Positions 2,527-45,900 are shown, counted from the first letter of the stretch. The stretch is DNA of 47,038 nucleotides from Blastocatellia bacterium (GCA_044868105.1 JBIOWC010000561.1:1-47038), one strand, 5' to 3'. Notes: generated from the letters alone by a model not told the origin. Program-made: numbers and translations.

Positions 2527-5500
2527 CTACTTCAATCGCATGGACGGGTCGCCAAACAGTATCCAGGTGCGTCTAACATCCACATCGCCGGTTGAAGCTT
2601 GGGCTTTCGTCGTGAGTTCGCCGAGCGTCAAATTGGCGTTCTCCGGGTTGAACATCAAGCTGAATAATTGGCGATTCATTGCCGTTTGATCGCCCGGACC
2701 CGTCATCCCTGAAGAAGCCCATACGGCAATCGCGCCGCCCGGTTCGGCTTTGAGCAACGCTTCCGCCAACGGTTCCAAAGCCGCATCAGCGAAATAACCA
2801 TTCAAGCAATTCATCATCACAAAAAATGGTAGCCGACCTTGATTGGTCAAACTGCGGGCTTCGGTTGAAGTCAACAAATTATCTGCCCAAATATCAACCG
2901 AAGCATGACCCGAATAATTAATTAACTTCTGCCCGCGATTGATGGCCTCTATCAGGGCGCGCTTGGCCGCCACCGTGCCCACCTTGCCGCGGTCTATGCG
3001 CTCAACCGTTGAACCGTCTTTAATCAACGCCTGCAGTTGACTGCTTGCGGCTTCAAAGTTGAACCCGTTGAGCACATCGCTTACCAGGAGCACGCTGGTT
3101 GATTTCGGCGTTCGTTCGTAAGCAACAATCCTCGCAACCAAACGCGACGCTTCATCGGCGCCGCGCGCCGGCAGACGCCCGATGGCGAGACCGGCCGCCG
3201 GACTTAAGGCAGTTGATTCGGTGAACCACTCGTCGCTCACGGTTTCCATGGTTGCGGTATCGAGTATTCGAGTCGGCACAAAATCATAATCGCCTCTGCC
3301 GAGATAATTTTTCGGGTCAATACTGGCGTCGCCCAACATCACGACGTAGCGCGGCACTTTTTGCCAGTTCGACTGCGCATAGGCGAAGAAGCTTTTCACG
3401 GCTTGCGGATTCTTGTGACCGAAGCTGAATTCATCGAAGAGGTCTTCGATATCAACAATGACCGTTTGCAAGCCTTGATTTTGTCTGTAGGACTGCAACT
3501 CGCGAGCCGCCGCAAGCAGACTGCTGTGCGTGACGATGAGCAAATCGGCGGCATTACCGGGGGTTCGCCAGCTTGAGGGTTGATTGGCAACCACGCGCGC
3601 CGGTCGTTTCATCTGTGTTGTCGTCACCGCTAAAAATGTTCTGGCGGAATCAAACGGCGAAACCGCGGTTACGGCAAATCCGCCTTTTTGTTGCGAGATG
3701 GTCGCAACAATTTCCTGAACTTCGTTCGGATTGGTCACATCGAATACCTTGATGGCATTGGTGGTGAAGCCCTCAATCGAGACTCGCTGCTTGCCTGTGA
3801 CATTAACTACCAGCGCATCCTGGTCCGCCTGATAAGTGTGCCAATAAGCAAGGCGAATCGCATCAACCAGGCTGATGTCGCTCTCGGCGCCGAGCGCTGT
3901 AAGGGTGATTTGATTTGCGCCCTCTTTGAGTCGCGTTTGCGGCACAAAGAATTTCGCTGAACCTTGCGTTTGCCCGTCGAATTGAACGTCGCCAACCGCC
4001 AGGCCATTGACGGTTACGCTGACCCGATGCGCGCCTCGGGTCACGCCTTGCAAAATCACTTCGACAGCCGCCTGACCGCTTGCCGTCGCGTCCAGATGTT
4101 GCAAGGTCATCGCCTGTTCAACCGGCGCGCGGCTTACCACCGCGCCAAAGAAATTTTCTTTATCGCCATTCCTCAGCGCTGAGAAATAGATGGTGCGGTC
4201 CTGGCGCACCACCGTGTGCAGGAAACTGTTGGGCGTCGGTAACCCGGCGTTGCCTTTCACGGTTTGAATACGCTTACCCGGTTGGGTTCCGGCAATCAGC
4301 CAGTAGGCGCGGCTGTCGGTTGCGGCGCTGTCTATCCCGATGCCGTAAAACTCTATGGTTGACGACGCATCAAGTTTTACGTCGCTCTTGCCGGTTATAT
4401 TCATCGGCACTTCTTGGCCGTCAACAACGAGTTGCAGCAGGCGCGGGTTGACCGCTGGGTCAAGCCCTGCGGCTATTAAATCGGCGTATGAAACGCGGTG
4501 AAGGCCCGCTTGTCTGACATACAACTTCACGGCGGCGCGACCTGCAAGGTCTGCGGGTGAGGCAACTGTCGCATTATCTGCACCAGCCGTTTCGGCGTTT
4601 TCATAAGTGGCTTTCGGTTCGACAGCCAGCGTCGGACTTTCTTGCGCCGCGTCCCTTCCCATCAGCGACAAAAGTTGCGCCTGTTTTTCTCTGAGGCCGG
4701 CGGTTTTCTTATCTTTTGCCTGAGTAATTTGAATCGGTCCGTGCCAGGTGCTCCGGCCGCTTAAATCAATCTCTTCAAGCCAGTATCGGGCGCTCGGATT
4801 TGCCTGAGCATCCCACCAAGCGTAAGAGCGCCCGGCCGTCAGCGCCCTACTTTCGCCGGCCACAAGCGCCGAACCGGCGACGATTTGTGGCGTGAGGCGG
4901 GCGCGCTGACCGGCTTCTTCGCGGTAAACCTGAAAGCCGAGGTTGTCAACTTCTTCGCCGGTTTGCCACTGCAACAAAACTTCATTGCCATAATTCATCG
5001 CCTCAAATTTTGCGAGCCTTGAGGCCGTCGGCGATTGCACGAAGAAGTAAGCCACGGCGGCGTCATGGTCTGAAATGCGTTCGGGTCGGTTGGCGTCCGT
5101 GCGATAGACTTCAGGGAAATCGCCGTTGACCCGCGCATAAGCAAAACGACTGAAGAAATCCATCAAGGGTTGATTTACCAGTTCGTGGTCGAGCGCCTGG
5201 GCGTTGCCGTCAAAGCTGTAGGAGTATTTTTGCGAGGGAATTGGCGAGAGGTCAATCAAGTCAACCAAATTGGGATTGACTAGATCAACGCCGTCGCCCG
5301 GCACCACCGTTTCATTGTCAGGAACCGGCGTTCCTTTGATGACGCCAATCGAATCGCCTAACCCATCGTTAAACTGAAAAGCATTGTAATCGCCGATGGA
5401 GATAATTCTCTCCAGCGGGTCTGCTACCTGGCGCGCCTGAATCAGATTGGCGAGGTATTCAGCCTGGGCTTGACGTTTGGCGCGAATGCGTCGGCCGACC

Positions 5501-7965
5501 GTGCCGGTGCCATCCGGCGTGTCATCATCAACATTGTTGAGTGAGCGCAAGTGATTGACGATGACGGTAACCGGGAAAGGCGTTGGAGCGCCTGAGACCG
5601 TAGCGCGCAAAACCAGTGGCGGTCTGTCGTTCAAGGTTTCCGACGCGCCATTGTTCGGATTGACGTAGGTTGTTGTTTTGCCGAACTGGGTCACGTCAAT
5701 AACCGTCACCCGTGGAGATTTCACGAGGAAGCCGACGTCAATCAACCCAACGTCATTGCCTTCGACAAGAAAAGCTTGATAGTTCGGGTTGGGCTGCGCT
5801 GCGGCAACCGCATCATTGTTGATTTTCGTAGCCAGCGCCTGCAGGGTTTTCAAGTCCTCCATCTCTTCGACGCCGAGGATGTCAGGGGTGCCGAGGACAT
5901 TGCGAATCGCCAAGCTGGCTTTATTCAAACGATTATTGAAAGCCGTCGTGGTTAAAACTGTATCGCCACCCGGATCATCCATATTGTCATAGAAGCGTTC
6001 AAGGTTGAAGGCGCCGACGGTGAATTCGTTGCTTTGAGGAACCGGCACGGGTACAAAGGTTGTAATGCCGGAGACGGAGGGCACAGTCGCGGCTTCCGGG
6101 TAGAGCGTGTAATTCGGGAAGCCTCCCGGATCAAGCACGCCGACCAGATTGGTCACCACCGCCCCGGTCGTCACATCAATCGGGGAAGTCCCCGGTTGCC
6201 CGTCACTGTCCACGCGGAGGTGTTCGGGGTTCGCATCAAAGCGCGGCACCGGGGGAATGGTCACGGTGCTTCCCGTCGGTAGCCCGTTCGGCGCTTCGAT
6301 GCCGGGTTCTCTGAAGGGTCGCGCAACCCCTGTGACAACGCCCCAGAATAGGCCGCTACTCGTAGAGGTTGCGGCGCTCTCTGTCTTAAATCCGTCGGTC
6401 GGCGCAACCACGGTCAGCGAATTTACGCGCACGCGCATGTGTTCGTATTTTTCCAACTGTTCAAGCGGACCCGCTGGATCGGTGTCGGCTGCGGTGATGA
6501 GGCTGGCGGTCGGTACCGGATTGCCGGTTGAGAGCAGGTTGACAGTTGGCGACGCCAGTTCGGTGGAGGTTGCCGAATTGATATTTGCCGATGTGCTGCG
6601 AAATTCAGCAACCGTGCCGGTCACCGACACCAGGTTGCCGATAGCTGCCGCTGCCGGGGGGGCGCTCGAAGTAAAGACTAATAAACCTTCCGAAGTGTTC
6701 GGGTCCGCATCAACGCCGGCATCCGGGGTTTGTATATAAAACCCGTTGCTTCTCAGCCCCGTGACAATGCCCGAAGTGGTTACCGACGCGCCAACCAGAG
6801 GTGAGGCGGAACCGTTGCCTTGAATGTCATGGATTTGGGTGATGGAAATATCATCATTCGTGATGGTGCCAACTCCCTGCCCGTCACTGACACTGGCGCC
6901 TGTGACATTGGTGACATTCACCAAAAAGGTTTCGTTGGGTTCGGATGTCATATCGCCGTTGACTAACACGGTGACCGTTTTTGACATTTGCCCTTCGGGA
7001 ATCGAGTCATTGAGATTGAGGATTTGCTGATAATCATTATTGGCAAGCGTCGCCGAACCGTCGGCCGTGTTAACGGTGTAAGAAACGCCGCCCATCGGAG
7101 CCGCCGCATTCAAGCTCACGATAAAGGTGAAATTCGTCGTCCCGCTGTTACCTTCGGCTTGCGTCACATCGTTGATTGAGAGGCTCAACGGAGCAATACC
7201 GGCCGTGATGTTGAGGTCGTCAATACCGACCCACTCGTCATTTCCGGCAGCGTTTGCGGTAATGATACGCACTTGAACTTCAGGTTGATTATTGGCCGCC
7301 GCCGGTAAGGTTGCGCTCACCGGTGTGACCAGCGTCGCAAGACTGGGGCCGGTGGTCGCATCGGCAACAAAGCCGGCGGGAACATTGGTGAAGTTCCCCG
7401 ACGTCCCGACTCTGAATTGCAAAGCCACCGGTTGTATGGCGTTATCCGCTGTGCCATCGATATCCCGGAGGTTATAAGCGACATTGATGTTGCTCTGCCC
7501 TGTGGTATTCAGATGCATCAGCAGGTAAGGCGCATCGGCGGTTCCCGAACCTTGAAGCGCAACGGTGGGGTTGGCAATGCCATCAAACTCGGCGACCCCG
7601 CCATTGGTAATACTGGTGTTCGATTGATTGGCAATGACATCGAGATCATTGGCTACGGCGCTCACGCCCAGCAAAGTTTGTGGGTCAACACCGGTCGAAG
7701 TCGTGATGTCTTGACCGAGAAAACCTTCGATACCGGGTACACCCGACCAGTTATCATTGGCGGTAATCAAGGTGGTCGTCGTCCAATTTTGCGTGAAGGG
7801 TAAAGTCTGTGGCGAGGTGTCGCCTTGAACCGCAAGCGGCAGCAGGATACCGCTCAGGGATAATAAGGCGATGAGAAGGGCGACAAGAAAATTTCTCGTC
7901 GGTTTATGAATCCTGCTGGTGAATTGAATAATTTTATGAATGCCGAATAGCGATTGCTTTTTCAT
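2527..7965 (-). CDS. Large secreted multidomain protein: beta-sandwich + Calx-beta + OB-fold + ExeM/NucH-like EEP nuclease + Ig-like linker + C25 (gingipain-like) peptidase
   Basis: Signal region; Calx-beta (LSINDVTQAEGNSG...EPNETF...GTITNDD); IHDIQG...SPL OB-fold; EEP motifs FNLERF, GVEEME, NHLRS, GDYN, SDHD; C25 motifs IGRLP, NYSGH, MNCLNG, LFGDP. Confidence 0.88.
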   Translation of the reverse strand: MKKQSLFGIHKIIQFTSRIHKPTRNFLVALLIALLSLSGILLPLAVQGDTSPQTLPFTQNWTTTTLITANDNWSGVPGIEGFLGQDITTSTGVDPQTLLGVSAVANDLDVIANQSNTSITNGGVAEFDGIANPTVALQGSGTADAPYLLMHLNTTGQSNINVAYNLRDIDGTADNAIQPVALQFRVGTSGNFTNVPAGFVADATTGPSLATLVTPVSATLPAAANNQPEVQVRIITANAAGNDEWVGIDDLNITAGIAPLSLSINDVTQAEGNSGTTNFTFIVSLNAAAPMGGVSYTVNTADGSATLANNDYQQILNLNDSIPEGQMSKTVTVLVNGDMTSEPNETFLVNVTNVTGASVSDGQGVGTITNDDISITQIHDIQGNGSASPLVGASVTTSGIVTGLRSNGFYIQTPDAGVDADPNTSEGLLVFTSSAPPAAAAIGNLVSVTGTVAEFRSTSANINSATSTELASPTVNLLSTGNPVPTASLITAADTDPAGPLEQLEKYEHMRVRVNSLTVVAPTDGFKTESAATSTSSGLFWGVVTGVARPFREPGIEAPNGLPTGSTVTIPPVPRFDANPEHLRVDSDGQPGTSPIDVTTGAVVTNLVGVLDPGGFPNYTLYPEAATVPSVSGITTFVPVPVPQSNEFTVGAFNLERFYDNMDDPGGDTVLTTTAFNNRLNKASLAIRNVLGTPDILGVEEMEDLKTLQALATKINNDAVAAAQPNPNYQAFLVEGNDVGLIDVGFLVKSPRVTVIDVTQFGKTTTYVNPNNGASETLNDRPPLVLRATVSGAPTPFPVTVIVNHLRSLNNVDDDTPDGTGTVGRRIRAKRQAQAEYLANLIQARQVADPLERIISIGDYNAFQFNDGLGDSIGVIKGTPVPDNETVVPGDGVDLVNPNLVDLIDLSPIPSQKYSYSFDGNAQALDHELVNQPLMDFFSRFAYARVNGDFPEVYRTDANRPERISDHDAAVAYFFVQSPTASRLAKFEAMNYGNEVLLQWQTGEEVDNLGFQVYREEAGQRARLTPQIVAGSALVAGESRALTAGRSYAWWDAQANPSARYWLEEIDLSGRSTWHGPIQITQAKDKKTAGLREKQAQLLSLMGRDAAQESPTLAVEPKATYENAETAGADNATVASPADLAGRAAVKLYVRQAGLHRVSYADLIAAGLDPAVNPRLLQLVVDGQEVPMNITGKSDVKLDASSTIEFYGIGIDSAATDSRAYWLIAGTQPGKRIQTVKGNAGLPTPNSFLHTVVRQDRTIYFSALRNGDKENFFGAVVSRAPVEQAMTLQHLDATASGQAAVEVILQGVTRGAHRVSVTVNGLAVGDVQFDGQTQGSAKFFVPQTRLKEGANQITLTALGAESDISLVDAIRLAYWHTYQADQDALVVNVTGKQRVSIEGFTTNAIKVFDVTNPNEVQEIVATISQQKGGFAVTAVSPFDSARTFLAVTTTQMKRPARVVANQPSSWRTPGNAADLLIVTHSSLLAAARELQSYRQNQGLQTVIVDIEDLFDEFSFGHKNPQAVKSFFAYAQSNWQKVPRYVVMLGDASIDPKNYLGRGDYDFVPTRILDTATMETVSDEWFTESTALSPAAGLAIGRLPARGADEASRLVARIVAYERTPKSTSVLLVSDVLNGFNFEAASSQLQALIKDGSTVERIDRGKVGTVAAKRALIEAINRGQKLINYSGHASVDIWADNLLTSTEARSLTNQGRLPFFVMMNCLNGYFADAALEPLAEALLKAEPGGAIAVWASSGMTGPGDQTAMNRQLFSLMFNPENANLTLGELTTKAQASTGDVDVRRTWILFGDPSMRLK

Positions 7966-17508: not shown

Positions 17509-17537
17509 TAGACAAAAGCCTCTGCAAATCTTATCTT
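17509..17537 (+). promoter_or_regulatory. Possible sigma70-type promoter for the ECF sigma gene
   Basis: TAGACA-N17-TATCTT ending 26 bp before ATG 17564. Confidence 0.4.
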
Positions 17538-17563: not shown

Positions 17564-18139
17564 ATGATAGAACAAAGCGATGCGGAATTGGTGCAGGCTT
17601 GCAGAAAGGGCGATGAATTCGCCTGGGAAAAATTGATTTCGCGTTACCAGCGATTAATCTACAGCATCCCGCGTCGGGCGGGTCTTGATGAAGATACGGC
17701 AACCGAAATTTTTCAAAATGTGTTCGCCAGTTTGGTTGAACAACTCGACCGTATCGAACAACCCGACCGCTTGCAGGCCTGGCTGGTGACGACCACGAAA
17801 CGCGAAACCTGGCGACTGATCTTCAAACAAAAAAATTTGCCTACCGAAAGTTTGCACAGCGAGACGGACGATGGCCAAGCCCTTGACCTACCCGACAGCG
17901 CGCCACTTGCCGATGATGTGTTGCTCAGACTCGAAGCCCAGAATCAGGTTCGCCAGGCCGTCGAAGCCTTGGATGAGCGCTGTAATCGCTTATTAAAGAT
18001 GTTGTTTTACACGGCTGAACCTCCGGCCTACGCAGAGATTACGACCGCGCTCGGCCTTCCATCAGGCAGCATCGGACCGACGCGGGCGCGTTGTTTGCAA
18101 AAATTATTGACCATTCTGCAAACTCAAGGATTTGCTTAA
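17564..18139 (+). CDS. ECF RNA polymerase sigma factor (type found beside CHAT proteases)
   Basis: SDAELVQAC..GDEFAW, region 2 (EIFQNVF...AWLVTT), region 4 ending GSIGPTRARCLQKL. Confidence 0.92.
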   Translation: MIEQSDAELVQACRKGDEFAWEKLISRYQRLIYSIPRRAGLDEDTATEIFQNVFASLVEQLDRIEQPDRLQAWLVTTTKRETWRLIFKQKNLPTESLHSETDDGQALDLPDSAPLADDVLLRLEAQNQVRQAVEALDERCNRLLKMLFYTAEPPAYAEITTALGLPSGSIGPTRARCLQKLLTILQTQGFA

Positions 18140-18154
18140 AAAACTTTTCGAGGA

Positions 18155-18184
18155 GGTATTTTTCACCCGCCCGGCGGCACTGTC
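18155..18184 (+). promoter_or_regulatory. Candidate ECF promoter 1 (anti-sigma/CHAT transcript)
   Basis: GGTATTTTTCACCCGCCCGGCGGCACTGTC: GTAT-N18-CACT; the same motif and spacing occur at 23297-23326(-) and 23457-23485(+). Confidence 0.6.
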
Positions 18185-18219
18185 AGATGGGCAAGAAGTT
18201 TTTAAGGAAGAGGTTAAAT

Positions 18220-18813
18220 ATGAACATCAAAGCGCATATCGAGTTTGCCAAGCTGGCTGATCTCGTCGAAAACCGCCTGTCGGCCGAGGAAAGTTCGCCC
18301 CTTAACACGCACCTCGCCGCTTGCAGTCAATGTTCGGATACTTACGCGAAGCTTGCCAAAACCGTCTCCTTAATGCGCGCCAATGAACTGGAAGAGGCGC
18401 CGCCATGGGCAATCGCGCGGGTCACCAGCTTGTTTAAGCCCCGCGCCAAACAAGCGGTTTCTTTATTCGAACGCATCACGGCTTTACTGAAATTCGATAG
18501 TCAACAACTGATGCCCGCCTACGGGGTGCGCTCGGCGGCGGCGACTGAACGGCAGATGCTCTTTGCAGCGGGCGAACGGGAATTGCAATTGCAACTCGCC
18601 CGCGCCAACGATGAATGGATTGTCTCAGGGCAAATCCTTGGCGACTGTGAGGGTGGCGAGATTGAAATCAAAAATTCGAGTCTATCCAAACAGACCGCGC
18701 TTAATCAGTTGTGCGAATTTACCTTGCCACAGGTTCCCGCAGGCACTTACAGCTTGACTCTCCGCCTGAATCACATTGAAATAGAAGTTCCTAATTTAGA
18801 TTTAGGGGCTTAG
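18220..18813 (+). CDS. Soluble zinc-finger (HxxxCxxC) anti-sigma-like protein with C-terminal Ig-like beta domain
   Basis: HLAACSQC zf-HC2 motif, no TM segment, FDS...GVRS linker, beta-rich C-terminus (EFTLPQVPAGTYSL); SD GAGG. Confidence 0.85.
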   Translation: MNIKAHIEFAKLADLVENRLSAEESSPLNTHLAACSQCSDTYAKLAKTVSLMRANELEEAPPWAIARVTSLFKPRAKQAVSLFERITALLKFDSQQLMPAYGVRSAAATERQMLFAAGERELQLQLARANDEWIVSGQILGDCEGGEIEIKNSSLSKQTALNQLCEFTLPQVPAGTYSLTLRLNHIEIEVPNLDLGA

Positions 18814-18815
18814 GT

Positions 18816-21650
18816 ATGACAGCCGACGAGTTAGCCGCGGCGCTGGTGGCGGCTAACCAGACGACGCGAGTTGAACTGCTCGCCAAGCATCCATCATTAC
18901 TCAATCAAGACCTCGCCTTCGCGCTCAAATCCTTATTTTATGAAACCCGGGTGAGCGACCCCGTACGGGCGCGCCACATTTCCGAGGCCCTCAACGCGCT
19001 GAGCGAATTTACACAAAATCCTCACCTCTCGGCCCTCGCCTGTTGGATAGCCGGAATCGTCGCACTCGAAATCGAAGGGCACATCGAACAGGCACTCACC
19101 CAGCTCGACCAGGCGGCCTCACGTTTTCTGGACTTACAGCAACCGCTTGAGGCGGCGTCAACCTGCGTCAGTAAACTGCGCGCTTTAGCCATGCTGGGTC
19201 GTTACGATGAGGCGCTTGAGTGTGGGCTGCAGGCGCGCGATATTTTAGTCGCGCAGGGCGACAAGGTGGCGGCGGGGAAAATTGAACATAATCTCGGCAA
19301 CATCTATTTTCGCCGCGACCGTTACCGGGAAGCCGAACGGTTTTATCGCGCCGCGCGCGCCCGTTTCGCCGCAGCCGATGACCCGAATCAATTGGTGTTG
19401 ATTGATACCTCGCTGGCCATGACGCTGATTAATCAACATCGTTTTCGTGAAGCCGAAGCGCTTTGTGAGCAGGCGCTCCGGCGCGCCGAAACCACCGGAC
19501 AGGTGATTGCGCAAGCCGCGATTGAATGCGATTTGGGCTGTCTGGCGCTCCTGCAAGGGCATTATAATCGCGCCCTTGATTTGCTGGAAAAATCGCGCCG
19601 GCGTTATGCCCAGCTCGGCCTGACGCACGAATCGGCGATTGCCGATTTGGAACTGGCAAACGCTTATCTTGAACTCAACCTGGCTCCCGAAGCCGCCGCG
19701 CTTTACCACAAAACCATTCCACTTTTTGCCGAACTCGGCATGCAAGCTGAACAAGCGCACGCCCTGGCCGCAAAGGCGCGCGCCCATCTTTTGCTCGGGC
19801 AACTCAAAGAAGCAACGGCAAATCTTTTAGAGGCCCGCAAGCTTTACCGTTTAGAAGGCAATGCGGTTGGCGAAGCGATGATCAATTTTGCCGAAGCGCA
19901 GATTGATTTTGCGCGCGGCGATTTTGTGGCTTGCGAAGCAACGGCGCGCCAGGCTGAAATGCCGCTGATGAAGGTCGGCGCCTGGGAGCGCGCCTTTATG
20001 GCGCGTTGGCTTAGTGGTGAAGCCTTGCGGGCGCAAGCTCGTGACGCCGAAGCCCGCCCGATTTTCGACGCCCTGCTGAGCGACCCGAAAATTCAAGCCT
20101 TACCGCAAATCGCTCAACGCTGTTACACCTCGTTAGGTTTTCTCGACGAAAAACATCATCAATTGCCAGAGGCCGAAGCCGCCTTCAAACGCGCCGTCGA
20201 ACTCGTCGAAGATTTGCGCGCCTTGTTGCCAAGCGACGAATTTCGCACAGCCTTTGTTTCCGACAAACTGACGCCTTACACCAAACTCGTTGCCCTTTGT
20301 CTTCAAGATGAAAGCCGCCTTGCCGAAGCCTTGAGCTATGTCGAGCGGTCGCGGTCGCGCTCGCTTGCCGATATGTTGAGCGGCGCCGTACAACTGAAAA
20401 CCCGACCGCGCGATGCTTTTGAAGGGCGTATGCTCGCTCAGCTTGAAACCTCGCGCGAAGAATTGAATTGGCTTTATCGTCAGCTTAATCGCCCGCCGGA
20501 AGCGGCCGCCGACGAGCACGCAAAAACCCTCGCCGCGCTCTATGAGACAATTCACCAGCGCGAAAATCAACTGCTCGAAATCCTGCGGCAACTGCAACAA
20601 CGCGGCGGCGCGAGTTTGATGCGCGTCGAACCGTTTGAGCTTGCCAACCTGCAAAGCCAATTGGACGCGCAGACCGCGATTATCGAATATTTCAGCATTG
20701 ATGATGAATTGATTGCCTTTCTTATCACGAATCGCGAGATTCACCTGAGGCGCGCGTTAGGCAGTGAGCGCGCCATCTCAGCGATGATTGATGGCCTGCG
20801 ATTTCAAATCGGTTCACTGCGTTATGGCGCCGCGCGTATACAAACCCATTTACCGCAGCTGGCGGCGCGCGCCCGCCATTATCTGGCACAGCTTTACGAC
20901 GCCTTGCTGAAACCCTTTGCCGAAAAATTGTCGGCGCAAAGATTAGTCGTGGTGCCGCATCGGGCTCTACATTATGTGCCGTTTCACGCGCTTTATGATG
21001 GCGCGCGTTATGTGATTGAAGGACACGAAGTCTGTTACGCGCCAAGCGCCGAGGTGCTCAGCCATTGTTTGAATGCGCCGGCGCGAAAGTTTCAAAAAGC
21101 TTTATTGCTGGGTGTTGCCGATGAACAGGCGCCGCAAGTTCTTGATGAAGCGCTCGCCCTTAAACCGCTTTTTCCTGAAGCGCAAGTTTTTCTGAATGAG
21201 GCGGCAACCCTCGATGCGCTGCACACGCACGCCGCCGATGCGGAGGTTTTGCATTTAGCCTGTCACGGGCAATTTCGTTCGGATAATCCCCTGTTTTCCA
21301 GTTTGAAATTAAGCGATGGCTGGCTGACGGCGCGCGACGCTTACCATTTAAATTTGCAATGTGGGCTGGTGACCTTGAGCGCCTGTGAAACGGGGATCAA
21401 TGCCATTGCGCCGGGCGATGAATTGATTGGCCTGGCGCGCGGATTTTTTTCCGCCGGCGCGCCGAGTCTCTTGCTGACCCTGTGGACCGTTGATGACGCA
21501 GCGACTGCCGAACTGATGAAAATTTTCTATCAACATTTGCTTGCTGGTCACCTGCCCGCCTCGGCTTTGCGTCAGGCGCAGTGCGAAATGTTAAAGCGTG
21601 AGCCGCATCCTTTCTTCTGGTCACCTTTTGTTTTACTCGGTCGCTGGTAG
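18816..21650 (+). CDS. TPR-CHAT domain caspase-like protease
   Basis: TPR array, then CHAT motifs VVPHRALHYVPF, LHLACHG (catalytic His), TLSACETG (catalytic Cys), LWTVDD, HPFFWSPF. Confidence 0.95.
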   Translation: MTADELAAALVAANQTTRVELLAKHPSLLNQDLAFALKSLFYETRVSDPVRARHISEALNALSEFTQNPHLSALACWIAGIVALEIEGHIEQALTQLDQAASRFLDLQQPLEAASTCVSKLRALAMLGRYDEALECGLQARDILVAQGDKVAAGKIEHNLGNIYFRRDRYREAERFYRAARARFAAADDPNQLVLIDTSLAMTLINQHRFREAEALCEQALRRAETTGQVIAQAAIECDLGCLALLQGHYNRALDLLEKSRRRYAQLGLTHESAIADLELANAYLELNLAPEAAALYHKTIPLFAELGMQAEQAHALAAKARAHLLLGQLKEATANLLEARKLYRLEGNAVGEAMINFAEAQIDFARGDFVACEATARQAEMPLMKVGAWERAFMARWLSGEALRAQARDAEARPIFDALLSDPKIQALPQIAQRCYTSLGFLDEKHHQLPEAEAAFKRAVELVEDLRALLPSDEFRTAFVSDKLTPYTKLVALCLQDESRLAEALSYVERSRSRSLADMLSGAVQLKTRPRDAFEGRMLAQLETSREELNWLYRQLNRPPEAAADEHAKTLAALYETIHQRENQLLEILRQLQQRGGASLMRVEPFELANLQSQLDAQTAIIEYFSIDDELIAFLITNREIHLRRALGSERAISAMIDGLRFQIGSLRYGAARIQTHLPQLAARARHYLAQLYDALLKPFAEKLSAQRLVVVPHRALHYVPFHALYDGARYVIEGHEVCYAPSAEVLSHCLNAPARKFQKALLLGVADEQAPQVLDEALALKPLFPEAQVFLNEAATLDALHTHAADAEVLHLACHGQFRSDNPLFSSLKLSDGWLTARDAYHLNLQCGLVTLSACETGINAIAPGDELIGLARGFFSAGAPSLLLTLWTVDDAATAELMKIFYQHLLAGHLPASALRQAQCEMLKREPHPFFWSPFVLLGRW

Positions 21651-21658
21651 AAGTGAAA

Positions 21659-21751
21659 AAAAGTCAGTAGCAAGGGTCGCCATCTGAGAGCCAGTGATTC
21701 AGCTTCTCTACAAGCGATTCAGCTTCTCTATCGGCGAGGCTACTGACTTTT
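21659..21751. repeat. Inverted repeat enclosing a direct repeat, between convergent genes
   Basis: AAAAGTCAGTAGC (21659-21671) and GCTACTGACTTTT (21739-21751); internal GATTCAGCTTCTCTA twice (21696 and 21716). Confidence 0.8.
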
Positions 21752-21774
21752 CCTGGAGACCTTTTCGTTGACGC

Positions 21775-23220
21775 TTATTTCTTCGTGAAGACCGCCTGTA
21801 CGGAGGAATCTCGATTGATGGTGAGGCTGCAAGTTGGGGCGCTGCCGGAACAAGCGCCTGTCCAGTTGACAAAGCGAAACCCCGTTTCAGGCGTCGCCGA
21901 TAGGGTTACGGTTGCGCCTTGAGCAAATTTGGCGGAGCAAGTGCGGCCGCAGTTAATGCCGGGTTCGGCGCTTACCACCGTGCCCTTGCCACTCTGACTG
22001 ACCGATAAGGTGTAGGCCGGAACGAAACTCGCTCCAACGTTGGTCTGTCCGTTCACCGATACCGTGCAGGTCAAATTATTGCCGCTGCAAGCGCCCGTCC
22101 AGCCCGCGAACGCCGCTTTGTCGGGGCTGGCGGTGAGCGTAACCTGCGAACCCGCTTCATAGGTCGCCGCGCATTTGTTCCCGCAACTGATGAGTTTGTC
22201 CAGTGAATCAATGCTGCCGTTTCCGGTTTTCGCGACGATTACGGCATTGACTTCAACATTGGCCGCCGCCATCTGCGCGCCAATCATATCGCCCAACTCT
22301 CCGGGTTGTGGTGCCGCGCAGGTGCCATCGCCACCGCAGATTACTTGATGGGTGATGGGGTCATAGGCGCCGGTATATTGATAAGTCTCATAACGACGAA
22401 TGACAGAACGCGTCGTCGGGTCTAAGCTGCCTTGATTGCGTTTACGCCGCTGGTTGCCGCCGCTCGGCGGTGATTGCTGCAAAATATCCCAGGAGACTTC
22501 CAGGTGCGAAGCGTCTTGCGGAACAATGGGGTTATCACTCATCAATTCATCAAGCGTGACCTGACGATTCAGTTGAGTTTTGAATATCTTCACCCATTGC
22601 GCGTCGCCATAGGTTTCAGGAGTTTCAGGCGGTTCAGGCGCTTCGATTTCAGCTTCAAGAACCGGCGGTTCACCGGCTTGCGCGGGCGGCGTAATGATAT
22701 AGGTCGGCGCCGGAATCGCCACCGGCGGATTGGCTGAAATTAAATTGCCCGGCGCTTGCGGGTCTTCAATGAGCCAATGATAAGTCGTGCGCGTGGGGTT
22801 AGCGCTTAGCGTTACGCCAAAATGTTCGCAACCGCTCGTGGCGTAGCTGGCCCCGTTCCATTGATAGCAGGTCCCGGCAAAAGACGTGCCCGGCGCGTGC
22901 GGCGTGGTGGTTTGTGAAAAGCGTTGCGTGGCGGCGTCATAGCTGCTTGTCCAACGAACCTTCACCCCGGTTGCCGTTTGCAGGACGGTTGGCTGTCCGT
23001 AGCGCAGAACGCTGAACATATAATAGACATCGTTGAGCTGTAATCCTTCAAGCTCGATTTCAAAACCGTGAGCTTCATGCTCAGTATTATTCACCGCATC
23101 AAAATTTGATAACGAACCATAAAAATTGGCGGTTTGTGCCTGAGCGGAACGAATTGCCACTCCTAATAATAAAGCGAAAAGCAAAGCAAAGTGCACTGAC
23201 CATTTTTTCATATTTAACAC
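21775..23220 (-). CDS. Secreted protein with an unknown N-terminal domain and two C-terminal InlB B-repeat-like (Ig-like) domains
   Basis: Signal peptide AQA-Q; two repeats of G.G.V.S....I.CG..C.A....G..VTL.A.P....F..WTGACSG....C. Confidence 0.85.
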   Translation of the reverse strand: MLNMKKWSVHFALLFALLLGVAIRSAQAQTANFYGSLSNFDAVNNTEHEAHGFEIELEGLQLNDVYYMFSVLRYGQPTVLQTATGVKVRWTSSYDAATQRFSQTTTPHAPGTSFAGTCYQWNGASYATSGCEHFGVTLSANPTRTTYHWLIEDPQAPGNLISANPPVAIPAPTYIITPPAQAGEPPVLEAEIEAPEPPETPETYGDAQWVKIFKTQLNRQVTLDELMSDNPIVPQDASHLEVSWDILQQSPPSGGNQRRKRNQGSLDPTTRSVIRRYETYQYTGAYDPITHQVICGGDGTCAAPQPGELGDMIGAQMAAANVEVNAVIVAKTGNGSIDSLDKLISCGNKCAATYEAGSQVTLTASPDKAAFAGWTGACSGNNLTCTVSVNGQTNVGASFVPAYTLSVSQSGKGTVVSAEPGINCGRTCSAKFAQGATVTLSATPETGFRFVNWTGACSGSAPTCSLTINRDSSVQAVFTKK

Positions 23221-23296
23221 GAATATCCTTTCTAAATTGATTAGCGAATATCCGCATTCAGCAGGCGAGGCGCTAAAAACAGTTTCGCTTCGCCCG

Positions 23297-23326
23297 GACA
23301 GTGTCAGGCGCCAGCCTTGAAATACA
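23297..23326 (-). promoter_or_regulatory. Candidate ECF promoter 2 (secreted InlB-repeat gene)
   Basis: Minus strand TGTATTTCAAGGCTGGCGCCTGACACTGTC: GTAT-N18-CACT. Confidence 0.6.
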
Positions 23327-23456
23327 TGATTGAAAAAATATGTACCACGACTATCCTGGAGACCTCTTCAATCAGTCCATACCCCTTGGGTGAATTCCAA
23401 AAAATACCGCTGTTACTGCTGAATTTTTTTCTCACGAAAATATATTTTGGCGGTCA

Positions 23457-23485
23457 GGTATTTTTTTTACTATTCAAGACACTTT
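23457..23485 (+). promoter_or_regulatory. Candidate ECF promoter 3 (S8 peptidase gene)
   Basis: GGTATTTTTTTTACTATTCAAGACACTTT: GTAT-N18-CACT. Confidence 0.6.
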
Positions 23486-23541
23486 ATAGAAAGCAGTAGT
23501 TTCTATATTTAACGTTGAACAATTATTTCTGTGAGGACCCA

Positions 23542-24810
23542 ATGCGTAGAAGCGTAATTTTTATTTTACTTTTTTCTCTCACCGCTCTTTTTTTGTGTGC
23601 CTTACCCGATTTCAAACCGACTAAAGTTAAAGCGTCACAAAGCGGCCGAGCGGTGCCTACGGAAGTTGTTGTCAAGCTCAACCGAGCCGAAGATTTGACC
23701 GGCGTCGCACTCGATTATGACCTCGACCCGACACCCCTGGCGCAATTTGGTGCGCGTCCCATCTACCTTTTGAAAATCCTTGGCGGAGAATCGCCAAACG
23801 ATAGAGTTGATGCGCTGATGGCTGACCCGCAAGTGCGCGTCGCTTATGCGGAAGTCAATTTGGTCGCCGAACCGCCGGAGGATTCAGGACGGGTGTTGTG
23901 GTCGGCGGGTGAGGGTTCAACCCAATATTATGGACAGTGGGCGCCGCTAAAAATCCGCTTGCCGGAAGCCCACACCGTAACCCGTGGTGCAGGCAGTACG
24001 ATTGCCGTGCTCGACACCGGCGTGGATTTCACGCATCCGCAACTCGCCGGACATTTAGTTCCGGGATACGATTTTATTGATAACGATAATGACCCAAGCG
24101 AAGTCGGCGTCTATGGAGAAGATCGCGGCTTCGGACATGGAACGCACGTTGCCGGACTCGCGGCGCTGGTGGCGCCAGAGGCGAAGATCTTACCCGTGAG
24201 AGTATTAAATGAACATGGCGAGGGCAGTTTGTGGACGCTGGCCGAAGGCTTGATATACGCCGTTGACCCGGATAACAATCCGGCGACTAATGATGGAGCA
24301 GACATCATCAACTTAAGTCTCACCACCATCGAACGCAGTAGATTGATTAAGGACATTCTGCGAGCCGTCACCTGTCAAGACGCGGCATCGCCGGATGCCT
24401 TTCCCTGCATCCGGCCGGGCGTGGTGATTATCGCTTCGGCAGGCAATAACGGCAGTTCCGACCTCGAATACCCGGCTGCCGAACCGGTCAGCGGCTTGCT
24501 TGCGGTTGGCGCCAGCACGGAATTCGACACCTTAGCCACGTTTTCAAACTTTGGCTCCTGGGTAGAGATTGCGGCGCCTGGTGAATATGTACTGAGCACC
24601 GTGCCGGGCGGGGGATTTGGAACCTGGAGCGGAACCTCGATGGCGGCGCCGCTGGTGGCGGGCGAAGCAGCTTTGGTGCGCTCGGTCTTATCGAGATCCG
24701 ACCCCTCGAGAATTATTCAGCGCATCACCTCCAACAGCGCGAGAATTTCAGGACCCATCCGCTCGCGCATCGATACAGCTTACGCAGTTGGGCTTAGTCG
24801 CCCGCGCTAA
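23542..24810 (+). CDS. S8 subtilisin-family serine peptidase with signal peptide and propeptide
   Basis: AVLDTG, HGTHVAG, SAGN and GTSMAAP triad/oxyanion motifs; SD GAGG before ATG 23542. Confidence 0.95.
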   Translation: MRRSVIFILLFSLTALFLCALPDFKPTKVKASQSGRAVPTEVVVKLNRAEDLTGVALDYDLDPTPLAQFGARPIYLLKILGGESPNDRVDALMADPQVRVAYAEVNLVAEPPEDSGRVLWSAGEGSTQYYGQWAPLKIRLPEAHTVTRGAGSTIAVLDTGVDFTHPQLAGHLVPGYDFIDNDNDPSEVGVYGEDRGFGHGTHVAGLAALVAPEAKILPVRVLNEHGEGSLWTLAEGLIYAVDPDNNPATNDGADIINLSLTTIERSRLIKDILRAVTCQDAASPDAFPCIRPGVVIIASAGNNGSSDLEYPAAEPVSGLLAVGASTEFDTLATFSNFGSWVEIAAPGEYVLSTVPGGGFGTWSGTSMAAPLVAGEAALVRSVLSRSDPSRIIQRITSNSARISGPIRSRIDTAYAVGLSRPR

Positions 24811-42936: not shown

Positions 42937-45900
42937 TTAAGGTCGGGTGAAGCGGATTTCATTAGACAACGAGCCATCGGCATTTTTAACTTGCAGGGTC
43001 ACCGTCTGCCCGCGCTCGATTAACTTCCCGGCTTTCTTACCGAACAATTGCCCGGTCGGGTTCTGCTCGTCGTTGCCGGTCTTTTTGTGGACCTCGCCAT
43101 TGATCAGTATTTTCGCCCCGACATCAAAACCGCTGCCGAAGACCAGCAGGTGCTTGCCTTGAATCTCGGCTCTGTTGAGCGCCGGACCAGCAGCTTTGAT
43201 CTTAGCCACAAAAACATCCGCAGTGCCGCCGCCATAGCTCGCTTGCAACGGCGCGGCTGTCGGGAAATTCGATGAATCGGTCACGCCCATCAGATAAGCA
43301 TTCCCTGAGGCATCCACCGCAAGGCCAAAGCCTGAATCGATGCCGCTGCCGCCCAGATAGGTCGAGTAGTCTAATGCTGAACCCGCGGCGTTCAACTTCG
43401 CCACGAAGCCATCGAATGAACCACCGCCGAAGGCGGGTTGCAAGGGGGCAACGGTCGGAAAGTTCGTTGAGCCGGTAAATCCCGTGACATAGGCGCTGCC
43501 CGCAGCGTCCACGGCAATGGCTGTGCCGCCCTCAATACGGCTGCCGCCCAGGTATGTCGAATAGATGAGCGTCGTACCCGATGGATTGATCTTCGCGACG
43601 AATGCATCGCCGCCGCCGCCGGCATTCTGTTGCAGAGCTTTTGCCGTCGGGAAGTTTATCGAATCGGTGTCGCCCGTCACATAGGCATTGCCCGCCGGGT
43701 CAACGGCGATACGCAAGGCTCTATCTTCGCCGCTGCCGCCGAGGTAACTCGCATAAAGCAGTTGGTGATTATCGGGATTTAAGCGGGCGACAAAGCCATC
43801 GAATAAGCCGCCGCCATGAGCGCTTTGCACAGCGTTCACGGTTTGGAAATTATGCGAAGTGGTCACCCCCGTTACATAAACATTGCCCGCTACGTCTATC
43901 GCCAGACTGGTCGCCGCATCGCTGCCGGTAGCGCCGAGGTAGGTGGAAAAGAGCAACTGATCGCCGGCGGCGTTCAGTCGGGCAACGAAAGCATCGCTCG
44001 CCCCACCCGCATTCGCTTGCACGGCATTCTGCGTCGGAAAATTGCTAGAGGTGGCAATACCTGACAGATAAACCTTGCCCGTCGCATCAACGGCAATGCT
44101 GGTCCCGGCATCGTTGGCGCTGCCGCCCACATGCGTGGCATACAGCAAACTGCCCGTCGCATTCAACTTCATCACAAAAGCATTGAAGGCGCCGCGTTTC
44201 AATGCCTGCATCGCATTTTTTACGGGAAAGTTCATTGAACCTGTATAGCCCGTCACATAGGCATTGCCCGCCGGGTCAACGGCGATGCTGCTGGCATTGT
44301 CTTGTCCATTGCCGCCGAAGTAGGTGGCGTATACGAGAGCCGTGCCCGTCGCATTCAGTTTGGCAACAAAAGCGTCTTGCTGCCCGCCGCCCTGCGTCGG
44401 CTGGGCGGCATTCGCCGTTGGGAAGTCGATTGAATTCGTGAACCCGGCAAGATAAGCGTTGCCGGAGGCATCGACGGTTATGCTGTTGCCTTCATCGTCG
44501 CCACTGCCGCCCAGATAAGTCGAATAAACCAGCGCCGGGTCAATAATGAGCGGACGCGAGGCGTCGTAGGCGCCAACCTCAAAACCGACAACATCAGTCT
44601 GGCGTTCGGAGTCTGAAGGCCGCCGTCTGGAGCGCGTTTGGCGATTTGTCGCTGACGCGGTGTGGCGCTCGCCAAGCGGACGATAATGACAGGCAACCGC
44701 CTTTCGCACCCCGTTGATTTCCTGGTAAGCAACGGGTTTATGTTGACGTACGCTGCCGTTTGCCGTTTTCATTACCAGGTCGCCGTTGCCGTCCAGTTCG
44801 ATTTGCCGCGCCCCCGAAAAGGCTAGAGCAATGCTCTTGTAATCGGCTCCCGGAGCCAGTTTGAAGTCGTATTCAAGTCCGCCTCCGTTGCCGTAATAAA
44901 TTAAATCCACGCCCTCGTAGACCGCCGCGCATCTGACCTTGGCGTAATTGGCTACGCCGGTGCGCCACCTCATTGGGTCGTTGCCAATGAAGTAATTGCT
45001 TTTGCTTTCGAGTTCTTCCATACCCTCGATTGCCGCCCCGGTATTGGCGCCCACAATCTCCATTCGCAAAAAATCAGGAACCGGCGCGACCACCTCGGCG
45101 GTCGGTAATTCATAAGTTTGTCTTGGACTTTTAGCCTTTTGCCTGGTGAGGGTGAGGGTTGCTGCGGTCGGTTCGAGCGCCAGCCTGTAGCCATAGCCGC
45201 GGGCGGTGAATTTCGCCTGTGCAGCGGCCTGCCCGGCGTTCGGCTCAAAAGCCAGTGGCAGTTTGGCGTAAGCCTCGCCCTCTGGTGACCGACTGTGGTG
45301 ATGGCTGCGCTTGGCTGATGTCAGGGGCCGGGCAAACGGTCGCGCCTTTGTCGCCGCCATTGGCGCAAGGTTTGATAAAGCAGCCGACAGGGTGGCGACC
45401 AGCACAAGCCTGGCGCCTTTGGCTAACCGTCTTCGCCGTTGGCCACCGAAGACGGCGAGGGGACAGAAGCCCAGCAATATGGCAAACCCTGTAGTGAATC
45501 TACGTGGCAAAAGATTTGTCGAAGATAATTGGTGTTTCGCGCCTTTAACAACTGTGACCTTGAACTCTTTCTGCACCTGGGTGTCGCGCAGATCGGTGCA
45601 GATGCGTTGAACGGATTGCTGCAGGTCATCGCTGCCTTTTGCGGCCACAGCATTCAGGAAGTTGTCGATCTCTTCGAGGTCGCCTGTGGTGAGCGTCACC
45701 GGCTCGCCTTTAACCATCGCTTCGACGGCAGGTTTATACCGCTGCATGATGTCGCTTGTCCGCAGCAGCAACATGGGGTTGAGCGTGAGAACCCGCACGG
45801 CTTCGTCGGCGACCTGATAATAGAGTTGCGTATAGTTGCGCCCGCGCTCACTCTGCGCCAACACGTTATCGCGGAAGGCGCGCGACGGCCCTATGCCACC

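Follow-up and report, generated by a model that had tools for sequence, protein, structure and literature searches.

How is a sigma factor of the extracytoplasmic function (ECF) type set free when its putative anti-sigma factor is a small soluble protein and the next gene codes for a caspase-like protease? The question is raised by positions 17564 to 24810 of a 47,038-nucleotide stretch of DNA from Blastocatellia bacterium (GCA_044868105.1, JBIOWC010000561.1:1-47038; this whole stretch is called the window below). An earlier note on this DNA had described here a module made up of a sigma factor, a zinc-type anti-sigma factor, a protease with tetratricopeptide repeats (TPR) and a CHAT domain, a secreted InlB-repeat protein and an S8 subtilase, outside any CRISPR (clustered regularly interspaced short palindromic repeats) locus, and had proposed that the protease cuts the anti-sigma factor and thereby releases the sigma factor. 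Our open reading frame (ORF) listing and Pfam searches found all five genes at the positions given there. The first three and the subtilase gene form a real, widespread and CRISPR-independent conserved cassette, whose members in the window are as follows.

17564-18139, plus strand: ECF (group IV) sigma factor, 191 aa, with Pfam and NCBIfam matches
18220-18813, plus strand: putative soluble two-domain anti-sigma factor, 197 aa; zinc anti-sigma (ZAS)-type domain 1-72, linker, beta-sandwich 84-195
18816-21650, plus strand: TPR-CHAT caspase-like protease, predicted cytoplasmic, 944 aa; CHAT E=1.6e-67
23542-24810, plus strand: S8 subtilase, pre-pro-enzyme, predicted exported, 422 aa; Peptidase_S8 E=1.1e-40

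Conservation and spread of the cassette

A hidden Markov model scan of 401 genomes of the phylum with an alignment of 21 anti-sigma homologs (A1) gave matches at E<=1e-5 in 157 of them, mostly limited to the generic N-terminal zinc-finger part. Around 37 places in 26 Acidobacteriota genomes, where the matches reached past this part, about 18 kb each was fetched; with the window and two paralogs from its own genome these make up a set of 40 loci. The sigma gene is found in 39 of them, the TPR-CHAT gene in 37 (two cut by contig ends) and the S8 gene in 30, at least four of the ten loci without S8 stopping at a contig edge. The two paralogs are further sigma/anti-sigma/CHAT triads of the same genome, located by tblastn and ORF maps on contigs C63 and C506, both of which end before a possible S8 gene.

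The survey was repeated from the side of the sigma factor, with a sigma alignment (A2) run against one genome per species. At least 599 stretches matched and at least 592 were confirmed; the best 80 were used. Among these best 80 loci an anti-sigma gene is present in 71, a CHAT gene in 68 and an S8 gene in 56, and for the 56 loci with at least 6.5 kb of downstream sequence the corresponding counts are 52, 53 and 50, with all three genes in 48. The depositor labels of the best 80 include Acidobacteriota, Chloroflexota, Burkholderiales and other Pseudomonadota, Eisenbacteria, Planctomycetota, Armatimonadota and Actinobacteria; complete cassettes occur under the labels of about six phyla (depositor labels as given). 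Such an arrangement of genes is far beyond chance.

The usual order is sigma, anti-sigma, CHAT, S8, with CHAT-S8-sigma-anti-sigma (L042, L045, L104, L142) and sigma-CHAT ... anti-sigma-S8 (L063, L064, L066) as variants. Between the anti-sigma and CHAT genes the median distance is 11 bp, 50 of 80 gaps being no longer than 30 bp, with many overlaps of 4 or 8 bp; between CHAT and S8 it is 83.5 bp (n=66). These figures derive from longest-ORF starts, and some negative values are artefacts. The tight spacing points to one operon, in which S8 is a core fourth gene, normally co-directional and directly behind CHAT. The similarity of the four proteins to their window copies is rank-correlated over the 80 loci (rho 0.74-0.87, a statistic inflated by relatedness). 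A genome of the same genus provides an internal control: its ortholog of the window cassette (L033) and its paralogs (L037, L039) differ in all four proteins together. Judged by these protein comparisons, the cassette diverges as a unit, and the window copy is an ordinary member of the family apart from the insertion of the InlB gene (see below).

The cassette stands apart from CRISPR. None of the 28 window ORFs of at least 150 aa is a cas gene by Pfam, and Tandem Repeats Finder returned three short repeats only, which is weak evidence given that this tool is not suited to spaced CRISPR repeats. None of seven genome-wide matches to the Csx29 family exceeds its cut-off, no genome-wide search aimed at Cas7-11 having been made. 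These results agree with the earlier description of a stand-alone unit with neither cas genes nor an array in the window, and the co-conservation of sigma, anti-sigma and CHAT genes that the proposal presupposed was found in both surveys (40 and 56 loci), independently of CRISPR.

The sigma factor and its putative anti-sigma factor

The sigma factor scores above the cut-offs of its family models, with 72.6 bits against 42.9 for NCBIfam TIGR02937 (sigma70-ECF; residues 20-183) and 31.7 bits against 24 for Pfam Sigma70_r2 (E=1.4e-7), which places it among the ECF (group IV) sigma-70 factors, a class recognized here by the presence of sigma-2 and sigma-4 regions only. Its start was set through alignment with 39 homologs, and the segments RYQRLIYSIP and SIGPTRARCL are conserved sigma motifs. 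The linker between regions 2 and 4 (residues ~83-122; window 17811-17930) is long and acidic and carries an (A/S)PLA(D/E)(D/E) motif that is unusual for ECF linkers and is kept under the labels of several phyla.

The anti-sigma gene starts at the ATG at 18220, preceded by the ribosome-binding site AAGGAAGAGG. In agreement with the earlier note, its product has an HxxxCxxC motif (H31-x3-C35-x2-C38, with H6 completing the ligand set) and is soluble: no membrane helix was found in the window protein (maximum Kyte-Doolittle 19-residue mean 0.45), nor any membrane-like segment in 40 homologs (maximum 1.42 on the same scale). The AlphaFold2 model (predicted local distance difference test, pLDDT, 82.7) has helices at 9-16, 22-34, 36-54 and 62-71, a low-confidence linker at 72-83 and a beta-sandwich at 84-195 with a less confident loop at 94-109. 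The N-terminal part has the features of a Class I (ZAS-type) domain, namely H-x3-C-x2-C with an upstream His and a three-helix bundle plus a fourth helix. Pfam zf-HC2 matches the window protein at E=0.006 only, under the gathering score, and 15 of 21 homologs at E<=0.1; the C-terminal domain is weakly matched by CarboxypepD_reg in two of 21 homologs (best E=5.4e-5).

The top Foldseek match of the model is the ChrR-SigE complex 2q1z (E=3.7e-4), with low TM-scores (0.25) due to a differing domain arrangement, and the family profile finds RsiW (5wuq, E=5.7e-7) and the DdvA N-terminus (8rlz, 1.9e-4) and, more weakly, RslA (0.049) and ChrR (0.31). These profile and fold matches support a ChrR/RsiW-like anti-sigma fold and with it the earlier assignment of the zinc-finger protein as an anti-sigma factor; that it binds the sigma factor is suggested by homology and by the adjacency of the two genes.

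Across 101 anti-sigma homologs, conservation peaks outside the putative sigma-binding part. Arg104 is kept in 101 of 101, Gly137 and Gln138 in 100 of 101, Phe167 in 99 of 100 and Arg111 in 97 of 101, and Asp93 in 94 of 101, with Glu in the remaining seven. Of the 80-84 aligned sequences, about 71-72 retain the zinc ligands. The family is large: counted as 50%-identity representatives, it comprises 412 clusters at a threshold of E<=1e-30 and 3258 if this is relaxed to E<=1e-10, all about 200 aa long. A search for longer, fused forms gave none that scored, which is weak evidence on that point.

The TPR-CHAT protease and the S8 subtilase

The ATG of the CHAT gene lies 2 bp past the anti-sigma stop codon. 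The CHAT domain scores 228.4 bits against a Pfam cut-off of 24, TPR families are also matched, and the His/Cys dyad that the earlier note had called intact is formed by His817 (within LACHG) and Cys857 (within LSACETG); it is invariant in 95 of 95 full-length cassette homologs. Neither a signal peptide nor a transmembrane segment was found in the window protein or in any homolog. The AlphaFold2 model (pLDDT 90.9) starts with a helical-repeat solenoid (~1-520), followed by two long helices, a small sheet, helices 651-670 and 676-697 and the alpha/beta CHAT domain (709-942). In the fold search it is matched best by human separase, Csx29 and DdvA, with identities of 12-16% (Csx29 8eey_B, E=1.9e-16; DdvA 8rot, E=2e-13). 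The Pfam score, dyad, TPR solenoid and separase/Csx29-like fold place the protein in the CHAT/TPR protease family. It falls outside Csx29 proper, scoring 68.6 bits with the Csx29 NCBIfam model against a cut-off of 300.

The S8 protein scores 140.2 bits against a Pfam cut-off of 21.8 and is thus a subtilase. Its likeliest start is the ATG at 23542 (not 23515), matching the L033 ortholog. The catalytic triad Asp158/His199/Ser366 is kept in 86 of 86, 86 of 86 and 85 of 85 cassette homologs, respectively. The N-terminus is hydrophobic in the window protein and nearly all homologs, and a fervidolysin-like prodomain was found in 15 of 22 homologs scanned; a signal-like N-terminus with a prodomain is the usual build of an exported pre-pro-subtilase. 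Some homologs end in C-terminal DUF4214 or DUF5666 domains.

A predicted complex of the protease with the anti-sigma factor

CHAT (residues 70-944) and the anti-sigma factor (residues 73-197) were modelled together, with an own alignment supplied for each protein. The scores were 0.70, 0.69 and 0.70, as compared with three controls of which the best scored 0.00; at least 50% of contacts recur between the runs, and the partner pLDDT is at least 76. The confident interface joins CHAT 660-688 to anti-sigma residues 91-92, 94, 97, 110, 112, 114, 121-125, 136-138, 140-141, 164 and 166. It includes CHAT Phe663, invariant in 30 of 30 aligned homologs, and anti-sigma F92, Q112, G137, Q138 and E166, all invariant columns of A1, so that the most conserved residues of both families meet in it. 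The model supports a direct contact of the anti-sigma beta-sandwich with CHAT at an invariant helix beside the catalytic domain, as would be expected if the two proteins interact in the way that the earlier note had supposed.

As for the point of cleavage, the Arg104 loop is our guess, because the residue is invariant, the loop is flexible and separase cuts after Arg; metacaspase-type enzymes also favour basic residues.

Proposed mechanism and alternative explanations

The genes, their domains and predicted compartments, their co-conservation and the intact catalytic residues are established. In the mechanism that we propose on this basis, the N-terminal zinc-type domain of the anti-sigma factor would, by homology, clamp the ECF sigma factor and keep it inactive, and its C-terminal beta-sandwich would dock on the conserved CHAT helix, as in the predicted complex. 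By analogy with Csx29, separase and the proposal made for DdvA, a cytoplasmic cue read by the TPR solenoid may then activate the dyad. CHAT would cut the anti-sigma factor, with the loop of the invariant Arg104 or the inter-domain linker as candidate sites, the remnant would be degraded, and the sigma factor would be free to act. The S8 subtilase is the conserved exported product of the cassette, normally co-transcribed behind CHAT, and its expression may depend on the sigma factor. To this chain as a whole, in which CHAT frees the sigma factor by cutting the docked soluble anti-sigma factor, we give about an even chance.

A number of observations weigh against the proposed chain. The zinc ligands are gone in some Chloroflexota, Planctomycetota and Actinobacteria members, and one Acidobacteriota clade has an anti-sigma protein of 160-175 aa without the first two helices, so that sigma binding may not be universal. 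Eight of the 56 loci are incomplete, one of which (L116) does have an anti-sigma gene that the filter missed. The complex score expresses model confidence, and its calibration, in which the score mark is reached by 58 of 80 complexes of solved structure and by 2 of 110 pairs that do not belong together, is only rough when own alignments are supplied; the fold, moreover, begins at CHAT residue 70 and, behind the zinc-type domain, at anti-sigma residue 73. Arg104 lies outside the confident contacts, and nothing in the prediction puts it in the active site. The S8 subtilase, being exported, cannot act on the cytoplasmic proteins of the cassette. Finally, the sole conserved motif found 5' of the sigma gene looks like a sigma-70 site and is limited to 12 of 114 loci, and an ECF-type promoter common to the sigma and S8 upstream regions was not found.

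Some of the same observations could be read differently. CHAT and S8 may be the cargo, or targets, of the sigma factor and not its regulators, with the anti-sigma factor controlled in another way, e.g. by zinc-thiolate oxidation as in RsrA/ChrR. The full H/C-H-C-C site in the window and in most aligned homologs is consistent with such a redox switch, as is the location of CHAT and S8 downstream in the same operon, and conserved neighbours of ECF sigma factors may be targets as well as regulators according to the available part of Casas-Pastor et al. (PMC7826278). On the other hand, where the zinc ligands or helices have been lost, the beta-sandwich, the invariant residues and the CHAT gene persist, and in the predicted complex both proteins dock through their invariant residues; we consider this explanation unlikely. 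The position of the confident interface, on helices 651-697 beside the catalytic domain and not at the active site, with no anti-sigma residue confidently placed at His817/Cys857, would equally suit partner switching without proteolysis, in which the binding of TPR-CHAT alters the hold of the anti-sigma factor on the sigma factor and the protease has other substrates. A dyad kept in all 95 homologs and a bound partner whose flexible loop has an invariant Arg are better explained by an enzyme and its substrate, and the known TPR-CHAT systems work through cleavage, which makes partner switching distinctly improbable in our judgement. A further reading keeps the cut in the Arg loop and supplies the cue: the exported subtilase would make extracellular peptides which, once imported, would be bound by the TPR solenoid, thus closing a feedback loop. 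Receptors of the RRNPP type also sense peptides through TPR, and the loop would resemble them, with proteolysis as the read-out; we rate it as a long shot. If true, the cassette would contain a bacterial CHAT protease that stands on its own and is the first such enzyme for which substrate, cue and transcriptional output are defined, and the craspase/Csx30 and DdvA arrangements could plausibly have evolved from it.

The Csx29-like fold, together with the weak match of the CHAT domain to the Csx29 family noted above and a match of S8 to the generic PADLOC 'subtilase' model (E=3.4e-23), brings to mind an anti-phage or conflict system, i.e. a CRISPR-less relative of craspase in which the sigma factor induces defence or the proteases kill the cell. 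PADLOC-DB 2.0, however, returned no system match, and among its families none matched the sigma or anti-sigma proteins and only a generic TPR model matched the CHAT protein (E=3.5e-4), which leaves the cassette outside the known anti-phage systems of that database. The cassette, moreover, lies among chromosomal genes of an ordinary kind (M19 dipeptidase, GNAT, DUF4912, glycogen branching enzyme, thymidylate kinase), the region is stably syntenic with that of the same-genus relative, and the cassette is present in three copies per genome whose parts have co-diverged. A role of this kind has, in our estimate, very little probability. A chance neighbourhood of unrelated genes could be entertained only because the genome has 39 CHAT-domain matches, so that it is not unusual for a gene to lie close to a CHAT gene. 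The recurrence of the four families together in 48 of the 56 testable loci, under several phyla labels, and the stop/start codon overlaps between cassette genes leave practically no room for it, and we reject it on the co-conservation counts and gene spacing.

The InlB-repeat gene, upstream regions and other features of the window

The earlier note had counted the InlB-repeat protein as part of the module and had paired its gene with that of the subtilase. The following features bear on this and on the region upstream of the sigma gene.

21775-23220, minus strand: InlB B-repeat protein gene, Flg_new_2 E=6e-19; hydrophobic N-terminus, predicted secreted
21649-23454, no strand: lineage-specific insertion of ~1.8 kb, carrying the InlB gene and splitting CHAT from S8
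17509-17537, plus strand: candidate promoter-like element TAGACA, 17 nt, TATCTT, upstream of the sigma gene, which the housekeeping sigma factor or this one may read; 9 of 12 matches in a consensus scan

The two genes are indeed divergent in the window, and both products have hydrophobic N-termini. By blastn against the same-genus locus L033, window 21649-23454 corresponds to about 95 bp there, with synteny on both sides; L033 has the same flanks as the window (M19 dipeptidase, sigma, anti-sigma, CHAT, S8, GNAT and DUF4912) and no InlB gene. A phmmer search with the InlB protein over the 40 loci found the window copy only, and no relatives were found elsewhere in its own genome. Since the gene is absent from L033 and without relatives in these searches, the divergent InlB/S8 pair is an accident of insertion. 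The module as first described holds for sigma, anti-sigma, CHAT and S8; the InlB-repeat gene is not part of the cassette. About 330 N-terminal residues of the InlB protein are without a Pfam match. Just past the CHAT stop, window 21651-21775 contains a 9-bp inverted repeat, GTCAGTAGC ... GCTACTGAC, and a 15-bp direct repeat, GATTCAGCTTCTCTA, present twice; both repeats lie where the insertion with the InlB gene has its left edge.

About 90 bp 5' of S8 (window 23455-23541; L033:12518-12604) match the same-genus relative, including CAGGTATTTTTTT(T)AC, and may be the own control region of the S8 gene. Upstream of the sigma gene, the number of promoter-like sites in the region given by the consensus scan is not above that in shuffles. 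A related motif, TAGACAA-N15-19-(C/T)TAT, stands at a matching relative position in 10 related loci; used as a regular expression, it is what matches 12 of the 114 sigma upstream regions. No copy of this type lies 5' of the S8 or InlB genes of the window, a stricter form has no match in the genome, and spaced-dyad counting over the 114 regions revealed no widely common dyad (best 9 of 114).

Some variants of the cassette proteins and of their arrangement were encountered in the surveys. The short anti-sigma clade (L044, L046, L052, L053, L055, L057, L058, L059) has also lost the zinc site; it retains the beta-sandwich and the full sigma-CHAT-S8 context, and the gap to its sigma gene is too small to hold the missing piece, even as something like a separate exon. 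In L120, L134 and L144 (Chloroflexota labels), sigma homologs are followed by an anti-sigma-like protein of 378-519 aa with no CHAT or S8 nearby, i.e. by a different regulatory partner of the same sigma family; in L134 two pairs of this kind follow each other in tandem. The C506 paralog has a 414-aa secreted DUF5666 protein (L002:4667-5911) between its sigma and anti-sigma genes, and L039 has a gap of equal size at that place (sigma end 7574 to anti-sigma start 9004).

The 39 CHAT-domain matches of the genome (8.9 Mb, 934 contigs) include more than 20 in open frames of 800-1230 aa, which amounts to a large TPR-CHAT-like expansion of which only three members are in sigma/anti-sigma cassettes. 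The names of homologs point to Acidobacteriota, Blastocatellia or Pyrinomonadaceae, and the sequencing runs listed for this DNA are of soil-metagenome DNA, with no RNA run among them. Elsewhere in the window, 2527-7965 (minus strand) encodes a 1812-aa protein ending in a peptidase C25 (gingipain-like) domain, and 42937-46944 (minus strand) a 1335-aa protein with BACON, DUF7948 and SBBP beta-propeller repeats.

Comparison with known systems

TPR-CHAT proteases are bacterial relatives of separase and the caspases, and their known substrates are either tied to CRISPR (Csx29) or unproven (DdvA). What is said below of published systems refers to the available parts of the cited articles. The closest characterised system to the cassette is DdvS/DdvA of Myxococcus xanthus (8rot, 8rlz), which likewise has an ECF sigma factor, a zinc anti-sigma domain and a TPR-CHAT His/Cys dyad. 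DdvA is described as one transmembrane protein with a periplasmic, dimeric TPR-CHAT part, whose action is followed by RseP cleavage. It is an anti-sigma factor fused to TPR-CHAT, for which the authors propose a signal-induced cleavage of the anti-sigma part by CHAT; separase, in the same article, is stated to cleave after Arg, and DdvA-like fusions are said to be found only in Myxococcota and one Comamonas (PMC11506125). In contrast to this single polypeptide with a ZAS domain, a transmembrane helix and a periplasmic TPR-CHAT, the cassette has two genes and no transmembrane helix: anti-sigma factor and TPR-CHAT are separate and both predicted to be cytoplasmic, the former has a beta-sandwich of its own, and a secreted S8 is added, with no CBASS (cyclic oligonucleotide-based antiphage signalling system) or CRISPR island nearby.

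In the type III-E craspase (Cas7-11/Csx29, Csx30, Csx31, CASP-sigma), a TPR-CHAT protein likewise cleaves a protein that inhibits a sigma factor: Csx29 cleaves Csx30, relieving the inhibition of an ECF-like sigma factor (PMC10028731). The cassette differs in having no Cas7-11, CRISPR RNA or Csx31, and its inhibitor is predicted to be a canonical anti-sigma factor of the ChrR/RsiW type and not Csx30; without Cas7-11 in the cassette, the activator cannot be a target RNA bound to Cas7-11.

With respect to fold, ChrR-SigE of Rhodobacter sphaeroides (2q1z, 2z2s) offers another parallel, ChrR being likewise soluble, with an N-terminal zinc domain and a C-terminal beta-rich domain. Its ligand positions presumably correspond to the H6/H31/C35/C38 spacing. 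Unlike the cassette, ChrR has no partner protease, and its C-terminal domain is a cupin, whereas the cassette protein is modelled with an immunoglobulin/transthyretin-like sandwich, the sequence match between the two being weak (E=0.31).

The gene context itself has been sketched before. According to a review (PMC8999054, citing Huang et al. 2015), genes for proteins with carboxypeptidase, subtilase and CHAT domains accompany those of ECF54 members, which may be under proteolytic control; the group is described there from Actinobacteria and without an anti-sigma factor. The main text of Casas-Pastor 2021, in the part available, gives a 4Fe-4S protein and not CHAT as the ECF54 neighbour (PMC7826278). 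The cassette has the gene context as worded in the review (PMC8999054), a likeness by neighbours and not by sigma group models. Taken together with the weak CarboxypepD_reg match and the anti-sigma fold supported by model and family profile, this suggests that the "carboxypeptidase-like" protein of ECF54 may be the missing anti-sigma factor. No experiment on a stand-alone sigma/anti-sigma/CHAT/S8 unit was found in the literature searched, which covered few subscription journals; what came up was work on DdvA, on proteases of type III CRISPR systems, on SAVED-Lon and on the reclassification of ECF sigma factors, and a review.

If CHAT indeed cuts the anti-sigma factor, the cassette would represent a widespread new route of ECF sigma activation and would account for an ECF gene context so far listed without an anti-sigma factor; in soil bacteria, it could govern a regulated secretion of protease. 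As a four-gene system with neither a membrane step nor an RNA guide, it also makes the substrate, the docking site and the output directly testable. Overall, the cassette is a stand-alone, soluble and split variant of the logic by which a CHAT protease gates a sigma factor, in a gene context that comparative genomics had already sketched.

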